Shown one piece after another: positions 798 to 11,680 of a stretch of 64,000 nt of DNA; the first letter of the stretch is position 1; each line of letters begins with the position of its first letter. A model generated the notes under the pieces. The model saw only the letters and a program-made list of their open reading frames with translations, was not told the origin of the DNA and searched no databases. This DNA is from Candidatus Caldarchaeum sp. (GTDB lineage Archaea > Thermoproteota > Nitrososphaeria_A > Caldarchaeales > Caldarchaeaceae): the NCBI GenBank assembly GCA_038885755.1, contig JAVZZH010000004.1:32001-96000 (forward strand), read 5' to 3'. Position numbers and translations under genes: made by a program.

Positions 798-2231
798 ATG
801 GAAACCGCCCCACACCGGAGAGGCATATTGGAGAAACAGATGGACAGGTCAGCGGCTTCATACACTTCCTCATCCTCCTTCGACACAGCCATAGCCGACT
901 CGACGATATACGTCAACATAGCTCACATAAGGGCTTTGGAGAAGCTTGGAGTTGTGTCGAAGGATTCAGCAGAAAGAGCGGTAAGGTTTCTGTCTTCGCT
1001 CCTGAAGACTGGCGTGAAAATCCCCGGGGAGGCGGAGGACATACACATAGTCGTCGAGTCGGCTCTCTCGAACCACGTTCCCGAGGTTGGGGAGATGCTG
1101 GCTCTGGGCAAGAGCAGGAACGACGCCGTTGTCGCCGCAGTCAAGATAAAACTCAGGCAGAAGCTCTACGAGCTGGGCCTCAGCCTCCTCGAGACGACCG
1201 AAGCACTCCTGTCTAGGAGCTTAGCAGAGGCGGCCGCCGTCTTCCCCGTATACACCCATCTTCAACGAGCGGCCCCAGCCAGCTTCGGCTTCGTGCTCCA
1301 GTCCTACGCGGTTAGGCTCCTCAAAACCTACCCTTTACTGGAAACCGTTCTGGAGGAGTGTAAGGAGTCTCCCCTCGGCTCTGGACCGGTTGCAGGAACA
1401 TCAGTCCCCCTCGACAGGCAGTATGTCGCAGACCTTCTGGGATTCAGCAGGCTTAGCTTAAACGCTTTGGAGGCGACCGCCTCGAGAGATTTCCTCCTAC
1501 ACACCCTAGCATTAAGCCTCGCCGTCGCAGTGGTCCTCTCGTCGTTCGCGGAGGAGATGGTTGTCTACTCGTCTGAGGAGTTCGGGCTTCTGAGGATGCC
1601 GGAGGAGCTTTCGGCAACGAGCAGCATAATGCCGCAGAAGAGAAACCCCGTGGTGGCGGAGGTGATGAGGACCAAGGCTGCGGAGGCTCTCGCCGGCCTG
1701 ACGGCTGTGGCGGGTATTCTGGCGAGGCAGCCGAGCGGATACAACCTCGACCTCCAGCAGACAACTCCTAAGATGTGGATTGTTCTGGAGCAGGTCAGCG
1801 ATAGCCTTGAGGTTGCCCGTAAACTCGTAAACACAGTCGAGGTAGATTACAGAAGGGCGTTCGACGCTTGCCGACCTCCCACGGCGGCGGTCGAGCTGGC
1901 CAACTACCTGACGCTAAGCCACGGCATAAGCTTCAGAAAAGCACACAGCGTTGCGGGCAAGATAAGCAGGCTCATAGCCCTGAACAACCTCAACCCCGAC
2001 ACTCTGGCCGAGGCGTTCGAGGGGCTTGGCCTGAATATGAGGGTGGATGAAATAATTGCCGTCATGGAGCCTTCCCGAGCTCTCGCCAGATACTCTGCTC
2101 TAGGCTCGGCGAACCCGGACCACGTCAGGGAGGTCTCGTCCAAGCTTCTGGAAGAAACAAGGAGAATGAAGCGAGAGTTGATGGATGAGAGAGACAGGTA
2201 TGCTGAAACTCTCTCGAAGCTTCTAGCCTGA
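798..2231 (+). CDS. argH: Argininosuccinate lyase
   Basis: Fumarase/ASL signature SSIMPQKRNP, plus YTHLQRA, SRND and GYNLDLQ. Confidence 0.95.
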   Translation: METAPHRRGILEKQMDRSAASYTSSSSFDTAIADSTIYVNIAHIRALEKLGVVSKDSAERAVRFLSSLLKTGVKIPGEAEDIHIVVESALSNHVPEVGEMLALGKSRNDAVVAAVKIKLRQKLYELGLSLLETTEALLSRSLAEAAAVFPVYTHLQRAAPASFGFVLQSYAVRLLKTYPLLETVLEECKESPLGSGPVAGTSVPLDRQYVADLLGFSRLSLNALEATASRDFLLHTLALSLAVAVVLSSFAEEMVVYSSEEFGLLRMPEELSATSSIMPQKRNPVVAEVMRTKAAEALAGLTAVAGILARQPSGYNLDLQQTTPKMWIVLEQVSDSLEVARKLVNTVEVDYRRAFDACRPPTAAVELANYLTLSHGISFRKAHSVAGKISRLIALNNLNPDTLAEAFEGLGLNMRVDEIIAVMEPSRALARYSALGSANPDHVREVSSKLLEETRRMKRELMDERDRYAETLSKLLA

Positions 2232-3302
2232 ATCCATCTCCTTGACGAACTCGGAGTAGATTCTGGCCGCGGTCAGGAGGTCGTTTATGTCGATCGACTC
2301 GGCGTCTGTGTGGGCTAGCGTCGAGTCTCCGGGCCCGCATGCAGCTATGTCTTCGGTGACCGCGACTAGGGTGTTCATGTCGCTCGTCCCCGTCTTCTTC
2401 ACTATCCGAGGCTTGAGGTTGAGCTTGAGCATGGCCCTCTGCAGAGCTCTTGCCGCTTTGTTGTTGACGCTCGCGACCACGGGCTCAGTTATGTCAACGA
2501 TCTTGATTACGCAGCCGGTTGACTCGGCGAACTTGTCAAGCTTCGCCAGAATATCCTTGGAGTTGTAGGGGTGGGGGAACCTTATGTTTATGCTTCCCTC
2601 AGCTCTGTCGGGTATCCTGCTTATCCAGTCGCCGGCGTGTATCATGGTCAAAGCCGAGGTGACCTCCTCATACCTCTTACCGCCGAAATCCTGACTAACC
2701 ATCCTCCACAGGTTTAGAATCTTCTCTACTGCCGACTCGGCTATGTAGGGTGCTGAGGCATGGCCTCCCTTGGCTGAAGCCATCACTCTGACGCTTATGC
2801 TCCCCCTGTAGGATACCGCTATGCCGTAAGTTCCGGTTGGCTCGCCTACGACTATGCTGTCAGCTTTGATCTTCTCCTCGACCAGCTTCTTGGCTCCAGC
2901 ACCCATGCCCTCCTCGTCAACCAGCCCCGCCACCACCAGCCTAGAGTTTTTCAGCTTGTCCGACACCATGCTCCCAGCCATGAGCATCGCCGACAACGGG
3001 CCTTTAGCATCGACAGCGCCTCTTCCGTAAATTCTTCCTCCTGAAACCTTTACCCTGAGCTCACCGGGAACAGTGTCGACATGTCCGACGAGCATGGTGG
3101 TCTTCTCACCCTCCCCGACCATGGCGAAGTAGTTCCCCACCTCATCCCGCCATATCTTTGAGTAACCGAGGTCTCCGCAAACCCTGAACCAAGTCCTCTC
3201 CAGCCTTCTCTCCTCTCCCGGAGGCGTGTAGACCTCGAGGAGCTGGACGAGCGTCGCCACCGCCGTCTCCTTGCTTATCTCGCTTGACCTCAGCTCACCC
3301 AA
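2223..3302 (-). CDS. lysK: [LysW]-lysine/[LysW]-ornithine hydrolase (M20 peptidase)
   Basis: GHVDTVPG, GRGAVDAKG, DEE, GEP, GTSDMN and AHT motifs; located in the LysW cluster. Confidence 0.9.
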   Translation of the reverse strand: MGELRSSEISKETAVATLVQLLEVYTPPGEERRLERTWFRVCGDLGYSKIWRDEVGNYFAMVGEGEKTTMLVGHVDTVPGELRVKVSGGRIYGRGAVDAKGPLSAMLMAGSMVSDKLKNSRLVVAGLVDEEGMGAGAKKLVEEKIKADSIVVGEPTGTYGIAVSYRGSISVRVMASAKGGHASAPYIAESAVEKILNLWRMVSQDFGGKRYEEVTSALTMIHAGDWISRIPDRAEGSINIRFPHPYNSKDILAKLDKFAESTGCVIKIVDITEPVVASVNNKAARALQRAMLKLNLKPRIVKKTGTSDMNTLVAVTEDIAACGPGDSTLAHTDAESIDINDLLTAARIYSEFVKEMDSG

Positions 3303-3381
3303 CTGTAGCCGGTTCTTCGTGCTGCTGTTCGATTATAAATGTTTGGATAACTTTTTACGCTCCGGGGAACCATCATCCTGC

Positions 3382-4716
3382 ATGGAAAGAGTAAGAGTTT
3401 TGATAATGGGGGCGGCTGGACGTGACAGGGTTTAGGAGAAACCCCACGAGTTCCACAACTTCAACGTCTTCTTCAGAAACCGCCCCGAATACGAGGTTGT
3501 GGCTTTCACTGCCGCCCAGATACCGGGGATCGCCGGTAGAGTTTATCCTCCGTCGCTGGCCGGCGCTCTTTACCCGGACGGAATACCTGTGTACGACGAG
3601 GCCGACCTTCCTAAGCTGGTGGTTGACAAGAAGGTACAGTTGATCGTCTTTTCATACAGCGACGTGTCTCATCTGGAGGTCATGCACAAGGCGTCGTTGG
3701 CTGTCTCGCTTGGAGCCGACTTCATGCTTCTCGGCCCTCAGTCCACCATGCTAAAGAGCGTCAAGCCGGTCGTAGCTATCACCGGTGTCAAGACCGGAGT
3801 TGGCAAGAGCACCGTCTCTAGGTATGTGGTTAGGCTGCTCCGCCAAAGAGGATTGAGACCCGTGGTCATACGTCATCCCATGCCCTACGGCGAGCTCGAC
3901 AGGCAGGAGGTCCAGAGGTTTGAAAAGCTAGAGGACCTCGACGTGCACCGATGCTCTGTCGAGGAGAGGGAGGAGTATATTCCTCATTTAAGGGAGGGGT
4001 CTGTTGTCTACGCCGGAGTTGACTACGAGAAGGTTTTGAGGAGGGCTGAGTTGGAGGCCGACGTGATTGTCTGGGATGGCGGGAACAACGACTTCCCGTT
4101 CATAGCTCCAGACCTTCACATCACCGTGGTGGATGCGACGCGGCCGGGTCTTGAGACGGAGACCTACCCCGGTGAGGTAAACCTTCTGATGGCCGACGTA
4201 GTCGTCGTGAACAAGGCGGACAAAACTGACCCCGAGAAGCTGGAAATGCTGGTTTCAAAGGTTTCAGCCGTCAACCCTCGGGCGTTTGTGGCGAAGACCG
4301 CCTCCCGACTGCGTGTTGGGGGGAAGGTTGAAGGGTTGAGAGTTTGCGTGGTCGAGGACGGGCCCTCCATCACCCACGGCGGGTTGAGCGTGGGCGCTGC
4401 CTACCATGCGGCGGTTTCGTCCGGGGCCGAGGTTGTGAACCCCAAGCCCTACGCCAAAGGCTTGCTCAAGAAAATATACGACGACTACCCTCACATAGGG
4501 CCCGTGGTTCCGGCGGTAGGCTACAACCAAGACCAGCTCAAGGACCTCAGGGCGACGCTGGAGTCGGTGGACTGCGATGCATTCGTCAGCTCCAGCCCAG
4601 CCGACATCTCGAACCTGCTCGGCCTCAGCAAACCTGTTGTCCAAGTTTGGTACGACGCCGAGGAGGTTGGCGGTGATGTTTTAGCCCATGCTCTCGGAAG
4701 GCTTCGACTTCGCTAG
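3382..4716 (+). CDS. arcE: ArcE arginine synthetase-like protein (cDPG-synthetase-like GTPase family), two exons 3382-3426 and 3451-4716, about 436 aa after splicing
   Basis: ATG at 3382 reads MERVRVLIMGAAGRD, then a 24-nt insert, then FHNFNVFFRNRPEYEVVAFTAAQIPGI in the same frame as the 3499 ORF. Family motifs: KTGVGKS P-loop, RHPMPYG, WDGGNNDFPF, EDGPSITHGG. The ArcE function is inferred from family and context. Confidence 0.8.
3427..3450 (+). other. Probable 24-nt bulge-helix-bulge (BHB) intron in a protein-coding gene
   Basis: Outer helix TGGA(3417-20)/TCCA(3452-55); central 4-bp helix CGTG(3421-24)/CACG(3445-48); 3-nt bulges ACA(3425-27) and AGT(3449-51); inner stem GGGTTT/AAACCC; in-frame TAG at 3433-35. 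Cutting at AC^A and AG^T gives GAC-TTC (D-F). Confidence 0.9.
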
Positions 4717-5868
4717 GTATTCGACGCAGCTGTCGCCTATGACTTGGACGGCCTTCTTTATGTCGTTCTCGGTTATGAGGTATGGCGGCAGTAGACGGAG
4801 AACGGTAAGCCCCGCCTTGAACGCTATCAACCCATTCCTCTGCAGCAGTTTTATGAAGCCGCTCGGCTGCATGCGCATCTCAAGCCCTATCATCAAGCCC
4901 GACCTCCTCAGCTGTCGGAAGACCTGACGGTTCTGCTCAACGAGCCCCGCCAGCATTTCACCCAGCACAGCCCCCTTCTCAGCAGCTTGGTCAGGCACAT
5001 GCTCGTCGAGAAGAACATCCACAGCCGCCGAGACCGCTGCAAAGGCCAGCGGGTTTCCGCCGTAGGTTGACCCGTGGTCGGTCTCCTTCAGCCTCGAAGC
5101 AACCTCCTCCGTCGCAGCTACGAAGCTTGCCGGAAACCCTCCGCCGATGGCTTTAGCAGCTGTCATAAAGTCGGGCTTAACCCCCGCCTTCTGATGGGCC
5201 CAGACTAGACCGGTTCTGCCGAACCCTGACTGAACTTCGTCAACTATCAGCAGGGCCCCTACCTCTCTGCAACGTCTTTCGACGGCTTTCAGGAATTCAT
5301 CGCTGGCTGGAACTATTCCACCCTCTCCCTGAACCGGCTCGACGATCACGGCGGCGAACTCCTCGTTGAGCTTCTCCTCGACAGCCGACGGGTCGTTGTA
5401 GGGTGTGAAAACCGTTTCGAACGGGAATGGTTCGAACCCCTCTCGATACTTCGGGTTCCACGTGGCTGAAAGCGCAGCCATCGTCCTTCCGTGGAAGCTG
5501 TTGATGAAAGCCAAGACCTTCCTCCTACCCGTTATCTTCCTAGCGGCTTTCAGAGCCAGCTCAACAGCCTCGGAGCCGCTGTTCATGAAGTAGACTCTCT
5601 CCAGATGATTTGGGAGGATTTTGCCGAGCTTCTCCAAACACTCTTGCTTGACTTCTGTGTCGAAGGACGGCGGAACTGTGATATACTTCTCCATCTGCTC
5701 CCGTAGAGCCTTCACTATCCTTGGGTGTCTATGGCCTAGGAAGGCGACGCCGTATCCTGTGTAGAAGTCAAGGTACTGCCTGCCCGTGTCGTCCCAGACA
5801 TACTGCCCCTCCGCCCTGACGATTTTCAGTTCTCTCGGAGAGGCGAATGGAATAAGACGCACATTCAT
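4681..5868 (-). CDS. lysJ: [LysW]-semialdehyde transaminase (class III aminotransferase)
   Basis: NSGSEAVE, FHGRT, EPVQGEGG, DEVQSGFGRTG, AKAIGGG and HGSTYGGNP motifs. Confidence 0.92.
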   Translation of the reverse strand: MNVRLIPFASPRELKIVRAEGQYVWDDTGRQYLDFYTGYGVAFLGHRHPRIVKALREQMEKYITVPPSFDTEVKQECLEKLGKILPNHLERVYFMNSGSEAVELALKAARKITGRRKVLAFINSFHGRTMAALSATWNPKYREGFEPFPFETVFTPYNDPSAVEEKLNEEFAAVIVEPVQGEGGIVPASDEFLKAVERRCREVGALLIVDEVQSGFGRTGLVWAHQKAGVKPDFMTAAKAIGGGFPASFVAATEEVASRLKETDHGSTYGGNPLAFAAVSAAVDVLLDEHVPDQAAEKGAVLGEMLAGLVEQNRQVFRQLRRSGLMIGLEMRMQPSGFIKLLQRNGLIAFKAGLTVLRLLPPYLITENDIKKAVQVIGDSCVEYLAKSKPSESMG

Positions 5869-6710
5869 CTACGTACTACTCTCTCCGTCTCAGCAATTAT
5901 CTTACCAGCTAGGTCGTAGCCTGTGGCGAGCACCGTGTTCCTGAACTCGACGACTCCGTTGACCTCGTTCACAAGCATGCCCTTCACAGGCGACTCCATG
6001 ATGTCGACTCCTAGAACCCCTCCACCCATCGCATCACCAGCCCTTACGACAAGCTCCCGCAGCTCGTCCGAAACAGGGCAGGGCTGAGCCTTGGCGCCGA
6101 GAGCCGTGTTGGTTTTCCAGTTCTTGCTCACCCTGTAGATGGCTACCGGAACATCCCCCCAGACGTAGAAGGCTCTGATGTCTCTCTCCGGTTTGTCGAT
6201 GTGCTCTTGGATGTAGTGTATCTTCATCTGCGGGTTGTTCATGTTCTCCCTCAGGTCGAGTATGTCTGAGAGGGATTGTTCGTCGAACGCTCGGGCTATC
6301 ATCCTACCCCAGCTGCCTGACACAGGTTTCACCACCACCGGAAACCCGATCTTCTTGGCGACAGACAGGGCTGTCTCCCTCTTCAAGGCTATGGCTGTGG
6401 TGGGCGTTGGTATGTTGTTTCTGGAGAGGATGCACGTGGTTATCAGCTTGTCTGCTGCGTTGCGTAGGACGTTGAGGTTGTTGACGACGAAGCATCCAGC
6501 CCTCTCGAAGACCGCGGTAGTCGCGAGCGCCCTGTTGAAGCTCACGCATCTCTGCACTATGAAGTCGACGTCGTAGCCGTTGGCCTCGTTCAGCCAGAAC
6601 TCGCGGTCGGTTACGTGAATAGGCTGCACCGTGTGGCCTAGGGTGTTGGCTGCATGAAGCAGGGCCTTCTCCTCAAACCTAATGACGTCGTACGAAAGCC
6701 CGACCCTCAT
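5865..6710 (-). CDS. lysX: LysX/ArgX ATP-grasp LysW ligase
   Basis: RimK/LysX motifs KPVSGSWGR, YIQEHIDKPERDIR, WKTNTALG and NEVNGVVEF; directly downstream of lysW. Confidence 0.92.
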   Translation of the reverse strand: MRVGLSYDVIRFEEKALLHAANTLGHTVQPIHVTDREFWLNEANGYDVDFIVQRCVSFNRALATTAVFERAGCFVVNNLNVLRNAADKLITTCILSRNNIPTPTTAIALKRETALSVAKKIGFPVVVKPVSGSWGRMIARAFDEQSLSDILDLRENMNNPQMKIHYIQEHIDKPERDIRAFYVWGDVPVAIYRVSKNWKTNTALGAKAQPCPVSDELRELVVRAGDAMGGGVLGVDIMESPVKGMLVNEVNGVVEFRNTVLATGYDLAGKIIAETERVVRR

Positions 6711-9396: not shown

Positions 9397-9866
9397 TCGA
9401 TTACCTTGGCCCTGCTCAGCACGAGGAGAAGCTCGTCATACTTGCTGTCGACGTCGTTCACAGCCGACTCCGGAACATCCAAGTTGACTGGAATTCTATG
9501 CTTCCAGTAGTAGCCGTTTTCGGTGTTAAGCCTAGTGAACAAGCCTGTGGCCGCCGGCGGCATTCGGTAGTTGTGCTTGTTCAAGATGAATTCGACGAAA
9601 CATATTCGGTAGGCCTTTTCATGAATGTCGCCGTAGAAGGTGTTGAAGTAGACGTGGAGAGGGGCGTCCCTTGAATACGTCTCCCAAGTCGTGAAGCTTG
9701 TGTAGACGGGTATCCAGCCTTCATCCCGCAAGACTTTGTCCTCAAGAGAGACCGGTCTTTTCCAGCCTGAAACCATGAATCCACGCGACTCGAGCGTAGG
9801 AATGACGTACCTGTGTAGCACACCCTGCCTCATCAGCTCTATCTTCTCCCTCATCGTTAACGTCAT
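9393..9866 (-). CDS. Hypothetical protein
   Basis: 157-aa ORF with upstream GGAGG RBS; no family recognised. Confidence 0.6.
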   Translation of the reverse strand: MTLTMREKIELMRQGVLHRYVIPTLESRGFMVSGWKRPVSLEDKVLRDEGWIPVYTSFTTWETYSRDAPLHVYFNTFYGDIHEKAYRICFVEFILNKHNYRMPPAATGLFTRLNTENGYYWKHRIPVNLDVPESAVNDVDSKYDELLLVLSRAKVID

Positions 9867-9931
9867 CGGCCAACCTCCTGCCTAGGACCGGTTCATGCAT
9901 TTTGGCTTGTTTCAAGCGCTTATAAGCTTGT

Positions 9932-10741
9932 TCAAGGCCTTGCCCTGCTGAAGAGCTCGGCCAGGCCTCGGAACCTCGAGACGTCCTGAGCCGAGGTGTC
10001 GAGACGCATCGGCGAGACAGATATTGCTTTCTCGACGAACAAGGTGTAAACGTCGGTGTCGGGCTCGAACTCCGACTCGGGTATAAGCTTGCCGTGCAGC
10101 CAGTAATACGGTCGGCGCTGCGGGTCCTGCCTCTCGTCGACCATCTCCCGATACCTTATCCTCCCCGCCCTCGTGATCTTCACGGGAGTCTGGTGATTTA
10201 CTTCGGGTGGGAAGTTCACGCTCAGGTAATCGACGTCATCGGGCATGCCGTTCGTGAGAAGCCATTCAACAATCGGTCCAGCCCTTCCTGCTGCTTGACG
10301 CATGGCTTTCCTGAACCATCCGAAGCTCACAGGCTCCTCCTCCTTGTATGCGAGTGAGAAAGCCGCTGCTGGAACGCCTAGCAGTGCGGCTCTCACCGCT
10401 GCGGCGACTGTTCCGCTGCCGTAGACAGCCTGCAGCGAGACGTTGTTTCCCTCGTTTATTCCAGAGACAACCAAGTCAGGCAGCTTTCCTGCGAAAAGTC
10501 TGTTGACCGCTAGGATTACGCAGTCTGACGGGGTTCCTGAGCAGGCGTAGGCTGTTGTTCCGTGTATCGAGACCCTCTTCATCCTCAAAGGCTTGTGAAG
10601 CGTGATGCTCATTCCTGTAGCGCTCCGGGCGGACTCGGGAGCCACTACGACGACCTCGCCAAACTCTTTCAAAACATCGTACAGAGCCCACAAGCCCGGC
10701 CTCGTTATCCCGTCGTCGTTGGTCAGCAGTATTCTCTTCAA
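9932..10741 (-). CDS. surE: 5'/3'-nucleotidase SurE
   Basis: ILLTNDDG, GTPSDCV, SGINEGNN and SGTVAAA motifs. Confidence 0.93.
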   Translation of the reverse strand: MKRILLTNDDGITRPGLWALYDVLKEFGEVVVVAPESARSATGMSITLHKPLRMKRVSIHGTTAYACSGTPSDCVILAVNRLFAGKLPDLVVSGINEGNNVSLQAVYGSGTVAAAVRAALLGVPAAAFSLAYKEEEPVSFGWFRKAMRQAAGRAGPIVEWLLTNGMPDDVDYLSVNFPPEVNHQTPVKITRAGRIRYREMVDERQDPQRRPYYWLHGKLIPESEFEPDTDVYTLFVEKAISVSPMRLDTSAQDVSRFRGLAELFSRARP

Positions 10742-10744
10742 AGG

Positions 10745-11347
10745 CTAATCCTTTCTCAGAATCATTTTAGCTATCTCGTTGCGCAGCGAAGGCTTCAACC
10801 TTTCAAGCCTAGCTTCCAAAGTGTTGTCGTAGACCACTTTGCCGTCGGCTGACTTGGCTAAAACACCGCCCGCGGTGTTTATCGGTTTATCTGAGACGTG
10901 GACCGGAAACCTGTACTGGTGTCTGCTCAGTATCCTCTTCAACATGTTGATGCCCATCTCGTTTGAGTAAACCGTCATCTCCCTCCCCACCAGCTCCACC
11001 GCCTCGTCTAGAAGTTTCTTCAGCTCCGGCTCGAAAGAATCTTCAGACGCCATTCGACGAAGCTTGTTAAACACGGATTCAAAGATCTTCGAAACTTCCT
11101 CCTCGACCGCAGCTATAGCCATGTTCTTGGCCTGTATCTCAGCCGTGCTGATTATCCGCTGCCTTGAAGCATCCCGAAGGGCTTGCCCAGCTTCCTTCAG
11201 AGAAGCCAGCTCTCTAGAGACTTCGACGGCAGCCCTCTCCAGAACCTTCTCCGCCTCCCGCTCAGCCTCTTCAAGCATTTTCTCCGCGTTCTGCAGGGTC
11301 TCCTGAACGACTTCGGCGACTATTTTCTCAAGGGATGCGGCAGACAA
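10745..11347 (-). CDS. atpE: A/V-type ATP synthase subunit E
   Basis: Coiled-coil N-terminus; C-terminal GGVLAKSADGKVVYDNTLEARLE; next to subunit F. Confidence 0.85.
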   Translation of the reverse strand: MSAASLEKIVAEVVQETLQNAEKMLEEAEREAEKVLERAAVEVSRELASLKEAGQALRDASRQRIISTAEIQAKNMAIAAVEEEVSKIFESVFNKLRRMASEDSFEPELKKLLDEAVELVGREMTVYSNEMGINMLKRILSRHQYRFPVHVSDKPINTAGGVLAKSADGKVVYDNTLEARLERLKPSLRNEIAKMILRKD

Positions 11348-11383
11348 TTCGTTGGGATGTTCTAAAGCCTCCTAAAAAACATG

Positions 11384-11680
11384 CTAAACCCCTAGGACGC
11401 TTCTCAACAATGCTCTGTAGTCTATTTTCTTGGGCTGCCCGACCGGTGGAGCGAGCTCGTAGACTAGGGGCGTGGGCTTGCGTGCCCTGAGCTCGTTGAG
11501 CTCGTCTCGGAACTTTTCTGAAATGTCTTCGGACACGATTACGAGTCCCACGTCTTGCTGCTGCATGAGGTTCTTGATGAGCTGGAATGCTTCCTCGGGG
11601 GATTTGACGACCATGCCTTCTGCACCCGCAAGCCTGAACCCGTTGACGAACATGGGGCCGCCGACCGCCACAACCCTCAA
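11384..11680 (-). CDS. atpF: A/V-type ATP synthase subunit F
   Basis: VVAVGG-x-FVNGFRLAG, DVGLVIVSE and a RSVLGV tail. Confidence 0.85.
   Translation of the reverse strand: MRVVAVGGPMFVNGFRLAGAEGMVVKSPEEAFQLIKNLMQQQDVGLVIVSEDISEKFRDELNELRARKPTPLVYELAPPVGQPKKIDYRALLRSVLGV

Follow-up and report, generated by a model that had tools for sequence, protein, structure and literature searches.

The bulge-helix-bulge (BHB) intron of cbf5 was reportedly studied by Watanabe in 2002 and by Yoshinari in 2006, and the HVO_1309 mRNA of Haloferax volcanii is said to have been presented as a substrate of the splicing endonuclease EndA by Schwarz in 2020. A 2023 review speaks of no fewer than two genes in archaea that are spliced, namely cbf5 and HVO_1309, and expects more (PMC10485636); the cbf5 pre-mRNA, for a pseudouridine synthase, carries its BHB intron in the Desulfurococcales and Sulfolobales (Yokobori 2009, PMC2738675). 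Here we describe a 24-nt insert in a 64,000-nt stretch of DNA from the genome of a hot-spring archaeon, Candidatus Caldarchaeum, referred to below as the window. The insert splits a gene that is very probably a homologue of arcE, which encodes an arginine synthetase, and it is itself very probably a BHB intron that EndA and the ligase RtcB remove from the pre-mRNA.

The likeness to cbf5 is close. In both cases a protein gene is split by a short BHB intron, presence and absence are lineage-specific and gene prediction is misled; the enzyme that cuts cbf5 is a hetero-oligomeric EndA. The two differ in that arcE encodes a metabolic enzyme and is interrupted in Caldarchaeales and others, that its intron measures only 21–37 nt and lies 15 codons into the gene, and that it has a strict BHB, the motif of cbf5 being called relaxed (PMC10485636). 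HVO_1309 is likewise an mRNA with a BHB cut by EndA, yielding reportedly mostly spliced RNA (PMC10485636), but it belongs to a euryarchaeon with a homodimer-type enzyme and is an unrelated gene. The BHB introns in tRNAs of Caldiarchaeum subterraneum (Nunoura 2011, PMC3082918) are comparable in lineage, presumed enzymes, shortness and varied positions. They differ from the arcE intron in that the substrate of the latter is an mRNA and half of its motif consists of codons under protein selection.

Unconventional mRNA splicing is also known from HAC1/XBP1, where it is carried out by IRE1 and RtcB. There, too, a short intron in a coding region is removed by an endonuclease acting at a paired stem-loop, the exons are joined by a tRNA-type ligase and the translated frame is altered. 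Endonuclease and structure are different ones, however, and the system is eukaryotic and stress-regulated, with no evidence of regulation for arcE. HAC1/XBP1 splicing is mentioned in PMC13149111. In the literature searched, no BHB intron was found for the arcE family or for any Aigarchaeota mRNA, although supplementary lists of EndA substrates or arcE homologues could hold entries; a term search of the accessible text of Sugahara 2012 (PMC3293823) gave nothing on mRNA.

Structure, conservation and RNA evidence

The insert occupies positions 3427–3450 of the forward strand, contains an in-frame TAG (3433–3435) and divides the N-terminal motif GAAGRD|FHNFN, which intronless homologues read uninterrupted as IMGAAGRDFHNFN. 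In protein alignment, the read-through product of the window carries an eight-residue insertion within this motif, while a join of GAC to TTC restores GAAGRD-FHNFN together with a frame of 436 codons. The minimum-energy structure given by RNAfold for 3405–3470 is the BHB set out in Table 1, and the predicted cuts fit a scissile phosphate that precedes the third nucleotide of the bulge, as has been reported (PMC12397907). The initial annotation had described these letters as a strict BHB with outer, central and inner helices and two 3-nt bulges, in which cuts after the second base of each bulge join GAC to TTC in frame; it had also called mRNA introns rare, with cbf5 the classic case. Coordinates, letters, helices and restored motif were all found as it had them, and its view of the rarity of such introns matches the published accounts (PMC2738675, PMC10485636). 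There was no Rfam match in 3200–3700. No second copy of the intron sequence exists in the window or genome, so it is not a dispersed repeat.

In a set of 41 related genomes, 27 of which hold the gene, the insert lies between GRD and FHNFN in each of the 13 genomes of g1, the genus to which the window belongs (its own genome included), and in both genomes of genus g3. The motif is uninterrupted in genera g2 (with the record name Candidatus Pelearchaeum), g6, g8, g9 and g10. A pattern search of 76 genomes of the class returned 13 of 13 for g1 and 2 of 2 for g3, along with one further match that was intronless, and the same kind of search in a 401-genome sample of the phylum added three genomes of family f17 (L069–L071) with 29-nt inserts; pattern matches in G046, G182 and G299 were intronless or spurious. 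Among the best 80 loci from genome records, 3 carried an insert, 76 were uninterrupted and 1 lay at a contig edge. Two of those three were contigs already counted, and the third, L117, comes from "archaeon isolate SMAG_U8146". The best 80 metagenome loci comprised 3 with an insert (L155, L167 and L190) and 77 without interruption. The distinct insert loci thus number 22: 15 from Caldarchaeales (13 of g1 and 2 of g3), 3 from f17, and L117, L155, L167 and L190.

All 22 inserts, 21–37 nt long, share one codon boundary. Every one of them is able to form the central helix and the two 3-nt bulges in the same register (20 fully Watson–Crick, 2 with one G–U pair), and the inner part is in each case an end-to-end hairpin. 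An outer helix of at least 3 bp is present in 21, L167 having a mismatch beside the central helix. Ten of the 22 lengths are not divisible by 3, an in-frame stop is present in 21 and the remaining locus is frameshifted; no insert can be translated through. On the exon side, a first exon of 10–20 residues is kept as coding sequence at all 22 loci, and exon 2 of the window is a single open frame of 421 codons, 92–94% identical to close relatives.

Covariation was examined in a MAFFT alignment of the 15 Caldarchaeales loci, with 500 shuffles as controls. Paired cells amounted to 95.1%, compared with 88.8% in the shuffles, and the covariation score was 0.306 versus 0.161; neither observed value was reached in any of the 500 shuffles. 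When the partners were slid by 1–3 columns, pairing fell to 32–57%. RNAalifold independently predicts the same BHB, in which five pairs keep pairing through two-sided changes. A compensatory pair in the central helix reaches into codon choice: the exon Arg codon changes synonymously from CGT to CGC and is matched by an A to G change in the intron, the helix being CGTG/CACG at most loci and CGCG/CGCG at others. The flanking codons show a comparable restriction. GGA is used at 20 of the 22 insert loci, and CGY and TTC at all 22; of 168 intronless matches to the motif, 63 have GGA, 53 have CGY and 104 have TTC, and the joint context is present in only 4. The comparison of counts is descriptive, the loci being related to one another. 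Exon codon choice follows the BHB structure and is co-adapted with it.

A search of sequencing runs returned two metatranscriptomes (X1 and X2) that contain small shares of the stretch and that were compared with it over 3000–5000. One contig of run X1, 247 nt long and with a depth of 12.6, spans 3386–3653 minus exactly 24 nt at 3427, and the placement of this gap is unambiguous because the bases flanking it differ. The contig is approximately 94% identical to the window. All 10 of the exon-2 differences listed, as well as 3417 T>G, are bases of the sister genome G002; the 13 differences between G002 and the window in 3451–3653, plus that at 3417, make 14, the number of "other letters" in the contig. 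The DNA of G002 carries a 23-nt BHB insert at the same site, and the contig is accordingly best taken, on its sequence, as a probable spliced transcript of the sister species. Its beginning at 3386 is a contig end and not an indicator of the transcript start.

The genome that contains the window also encodes candidate splicing enzymes. Two frames of about 200 aa with the EndA domain PF01974 score above the cut-off (C1:360431-360682 and C3:170865-171119), and two full-length matches to RtcB were found (C1:604806-606143, minus strand, and C8:19634-20941, plus strand); the latter extends as far as the end of C8, and the two may be paralogues or one region assembled twice. A pair of EndA-domain frames together with RtcB agrees with published accounts of Caldiarchaeum subterraneum (PMC3082918) and, more generally, of Aigarchaeota (PMC5829648), which describe a heterotetrameric EndA and tRNA introns of the BHB type. 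ARAGORN placed introns in 12 of the 45 tRNA genes of the own genome.

A number of results weigh against splicing. The RNA support consists of a single assembled contig from one run, from a sister species rather than from the window's organism; contigs give no ratio of spliced to unspliced RNA, the library may hold DNA, an intronless allele is possible in the X1 community, and run X2 had no informative contig at the junction. As for the fold, the 66-nt segment is about as stable as its shuffles (z −0.22; equalled by 88 of 200), and when short segments are folded to minimum energy, the central helix emerges at only 13 of the 22 loci. BHB-like motifs are frequent by chance, with 4426 matches to a loose scan in the 1.33-Mb genome as compared with 3341–3518 in three shuffles. 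In an uninformative internal control, a strict BHB scan matched almost none of the tRNA introns called by ARAGORN, the borders of which are not BHB-aware. Within the covariation analysis, two of the five measures fail to exceed the shuffles: pairs changed on both sides numbered 5 versus 3.5 (reached by 76 of 500) and further pair types 10 versus 9.7 (reached by 280 of 500). In the outer helix, three of four pairs are invariant and lie within codons of the conserved motif; since they never vary, they are uninformative for or against the structure. Taken by itself, the BHB motif lies within what chance can produce; the precise restoration of the protein motif, the conservation with covariation, and the RNA contig exceed it. 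We put the probability that 3427–3450 is a real BHB intron in the pre-mRNA of the arcE homologue, spliced by EndA and RtcB, at roughly 0.9.

Proposed splicing route and competing explanations

The transcript would start at or upstream of the ATG at 3382. The TATA-box-like element ACTTTTTAC suggests a leaderless or short-leader transcript that would include exon 1, and a T-rich element (TTTTTAC, TTTTAA or TTTAAA) stands at a similar distance from the ATG in the Caldarchaeum loci compared. In the pre-mRNA, exon-1 positions 3417–3424 are predicted to pair with 3452–3455 of exon 2, giving the outer helix, and with 3445–3448 of the intron, giving the central helix, while the hairpin of the intron would serve as the inner helix; sequence and covariation both show a fold that leaves two 3-nt bulges on opposite strands. 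A heterotetramer-type EndA would cut after 3426 and after 3450, and RtcB would ligate the exons to give the GAC|TTC junction and a message of 436 codons. We infer these two roles because the splicing of tRNA and cbf5 is established and both genes are present. The intron would probably be released as a small circle, and unspliced RNA would yield only a peptide of 17 residues.

Other explanations of the locus have to be set against splicing. An open reading frame (ORF) from 3499 to 4716 exists, and many database relatives are annotated to match; the product could on that account be a shortened protein starting at GTG 3499, with 3382–3498 acting as a leader with a possibly regulatory hairpin or persisting as a decaying remnant. 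This is very unlikely, as in all homologues this GTG corresponds to a conserved Val within the protein, in EVVAFTAAQ, the RNA contig has the joined form, and exon 1 and the following FHNFNVFFR... are kept as coding sequence at the 22 insert loci, which would be unexpected for a leader. A further alternative is that the gene is a pseudogene or the insert an assembly artefact. The in-frame stop 17 codons into the gene speaks for this, but the insert recurs in 13 of 13 genomes of the genus, in 2 of 2 of the sister genus, in 3 genomes of another family, in 1 further record and on 3 metagenome contigs, and the rest of the gene is the intact 421-codon frame already described; such an explanation is scarcely credible.

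Two further possibilities accept the BHB or the hairpin and deny the splicing. Ribosomes might bypass the insert by a programmed hop on unspliced RNA, as in gene 60 of phage T4. The stop codon and hairpin that follow the Asp codon do resemble the gap of gene 60, yet an Asp codon suited to landing (GAY before TTC) is found at only 5 of 22 loci, the others ending in GAG, GAA, GCA or GTA. The covariation, moreover, fits a BHB, the 3' strand of the central helix included, and the insert is missing from the RNA contig; we regard bypassing as extremely improbable. EndA could also cut the BHB without ligation following, so that cleavage destroys or down-regulates the mRNA as in the decay initiated by the yeast tRNA endonuclease; enzymes of the EndA type can initiate mRNA decay in yeast (PMC10485636). 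A decay signal would not need the precision with which frame and motif are restored at 22 of 22 loci in spite of inserts of 21–37 nt, however, and the ligated form is what the contig contains, which leaves decay, too, with a very small probability. Splicing by EndA and RtcB, as the initial annotation had proposed, is the reading with which the shared boundary of 22 loci, the compensatory changes, the EndA-domain and RtcB genes and the RNA contig lacking 3427–3450 agree. The junction that it had pointed to in RNA was seen in the one sister-species contig with exactly 24 nt left out, the alignment of orthologues revealed patchy presence and absence together with compensatory changes, and its own counter-scenarios of assembly artefact and gene decay are contradicted by the many genomes with the insert and by the open exon 2.

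Table 1. Features of the arcE homologue and of the adjoining genes, in positions of the window.
Feature	Position	Strand	Remarks
Candidate TATA-box-like element ACTTTTTAC	3350..3358	+	predicted; about 25 nt 5' of the ATG
Exon 1: ATG 3382, 15 codons MERVRVLIMGAAGRD, last codon GAC (Asp)	3382..3426	+	peptide kept in 22/22 insert loci; aligns with intronless N termini
Outer helix, 5' strand TGGA (exon 1)	3417..3420	+	at least 3 bp in 21/22 loci
Central 4-bp helix, 5' strand CGTG (exon 1, holds the Arg codon)	3421..3424	+	100% of cells paired in the Caldarchaeales alignment
5' bulge ACA; predicted cut 3426/3427	3425..3427	+	geometry; junction of the RNA contig agrees
Probable BHB intron, 24 nt, in-frame TAG 3433-3435	3427..3450	+	absent from one RNA contig of run X1
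Inner stem GGGTTT / AAACCC; loop 3434-3438	3428-3433 / 3439-3444	+	within the intron
Central helix, 3' strand CACG (intron)	3445..3448	+	fold, covariation
3' bulge AGT; predicted cut 3450/3451	3449..3451	+	geometry; junction of the RNA contig agrees
Outer helix, 3' strand TCCA (exon 2)	3452..3455	+	fold geometry
Exon 2: FHNFN..., 421 codons, stop TAG 4714-4716; probable homologue of ArcE-type arginine synthetase	3451..4716	+	
GTG taken as start by the ORF listing (405-aa ORF 3499..4716)	3499..3501	+	conserved internal Val of EVVAFTAAQ
argH	798-2231	+	TIGR00838 above cut-off
LysK-type N-acetyl-lysine deacetylase / [LysW]-lysine hydrolase (lysK)	2223-3302	-	
LysJ/ArgD transaminase (lysJ)	4681-5868	-	
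LysX (lysX)	5865-6710	-	TIGR02144 above cut-off

Origin of the intron

On a gene tree of 102 rows the distribution of the intron needs 3 changes, and on one of 184 rows it needs 6, at least 4 of which are imposed by branches with good support. The approximately unbiased (AU) test rejected one clade uniting the intron-bearing genes (p 1.3e-8) with a 51-row set, made up of 19 intron rows out of 22 (all but L002, L005 and L008, which are near-duplicates) and 32 intronless rows picked as nearest neighbours and representatives. Inserts are present at the GRD|FHNFN boundary in at least four lineages of the gene tree, and f17, L117, L155, L167 and L190 are far from the window's genus. The intron loci span 33–58% G+C, with one AT-rich contig at 33%, and the inserts share little beyond the requirements of the helices.

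The intron may have been gained several times at one site, may be old and often lost, or may have been transferred. Tentatively, and with the odds somewhat against it, the GRD|FHNFN boundary of arcE could be seen as a recurrent landing site of BHB mini-introns or as the home of a very old intron. The exon codons GGA-CGY-GAY|TTC-CA provide the outer helix together with one half of the central one, so that a short hairpin with a matching tail would suffice to make a spliceable intron. No homing-endonuclease gene was seen beside the intron in the window, where the only long ORFs adjoining arcE are lysK and lysJ.

Further spliced mRNAs were looked for in the own assembly. A loose BHB scan followed by an ORF-joining filter gave 505 and then 48 candidates; the 15 that were inspected led into downstream junk frames rich in Arg, Ser and Pro, or were gene junctions. 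Of 13 candidates from a scan scored by codon usage, one was the normal start of a mevalonate-kinase-like gene and only C4:35427-35450, the arcE intron itself, was convincing, and these crude, non-exhaustive scans yielded no second convincing spliced mRNA in the assembly. The cbf5 gene of the same genome (C1:531380-531676, minus strand) is a single open frame of 306 aa without an intron. ARAGORN also called tRNAs with introns of 753, 726 and 246 nt (C1:64758-65602, minus strand; C8:5231-6048, minus strand; C1:532705-533041, plus strand), one of which is labelled "tRNA-SeC"; these are either real long introns or false calls.

Gene identity, annotation and significance

Database searches with exon 2 returned thousands of homologues. 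The distant ones are about 437 aa long, start with M..VVIMGAAGRDFHNFN and have no break. Over nearly its full length, the exon-2 protein is 52–58% identical to intronless homologues from Thermococcus, Korarchaeum, Coprothermobacter, Caldisericum and Bipolaricaulota. Its similarity to solved cyclic 2,3-diphosphoglycerate (cDPG) synthetases is distant and partial (E 1e-14 to 1e-10), and Pfam and NCBIfam gave weak partial matches to cobW, MeaB and LpxK, which did not name the family.

A name is available from Michimori et al. (2024), who identified the formerly hypothetical TK2200 of Thermococcus kodakarensis as an arginine synthetase, ArcE, catalysing citrulline + ATP + NH3 <-> arginine + ADP + Pi (PMC11032458). 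That paper gives the homologues of TK2200 as "putative GTPase" with weak similarity to cDPG synthase and lists them from Thermococcales, Korarchaeum, Coprothermobacter, Caldisericum and Bipolaricaulis (PMC11032458); the taxa named are those of the 52–58% identical homologues of the window protein. The window gene is best called an ArcE homologue and is very probably an orthologue, and the earlier assignment to amino-acid metabolism is borne out. A gene for ornithine carbamoyltransferase (OTC), carbamate kinase (CK) or both lies within the 1.5-kb flanks at 19 of 110 family loci. In the own genome OTC and arcC score above curated cut-offs, and arcA was not found in the assembly, which is 86.5% complete.

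In the window, arcE is part of an arginine/lysine biosynthesis cluster in which argH and lysK precede it and lysJ and lysX come after it (Table 1), and the order lysK-arcE-lysJ is confined to the intron-bearing genera g1 and g3. Outside the window, on contig C1 of the same genome, arcC (9622-10554, above the cut-off) adjoins an OTC-like gene on the minus strand (10576-11553); another such gene lies at C1:5771-6781, and a bona fide OTC gene at C3:63223-64128.

The closest homologues come from records named Candidatus Caldarchaeum, and their proteins are either N-terminally truncated (403–409 aa) or begin with false starts within the intron (MSLKRLRE..., MKKLRE..., MKSHE...). P0003, P0004, P0007, P0011 and P0013–P0017 start at the (V)AFTAAQ position, which corresponds to 3499 of the window, and P0005, P0008–P0010 and P0012 start inside the insert. 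The expectation that gene callers would truncate the protein to the 3499 start therefore holds for the deposited relatives, and the intron leads to a systematic annotation error in the arcE of Caldarchaeum.

The arcE intron in all likelihood adds a rare and well-supported case of archaeal mRNA splicing of the same kind as cbf5 and HVO_1309. It brings in the gene of a metabolic enzyme and a new lineage, the Caldarchaeales (once called Aigarchaeota), along with a BHB of textbook strictness, covariation extending to synonymous codon choice, and a probable spliced junction in environmental RNA. Together, arcE, arcC and OTC would form a complete arginine synthetase pathway, and mis-annotated arcE genes distort surveys of this newly described pathway. 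Since the intron occurs patchily at a single codon boundary in lineages far apart, its gain, its loss and a possible transfer can be tested directly. If the tentative reading of the GRD|FHNFN boundary is true, introns of the tRNA type would repeatedly enter protein genes where the codons already offer half of a BHB, and the expression of an ATP-yielding arginine enzyme would be tied to the tRNA-splicing machinery.

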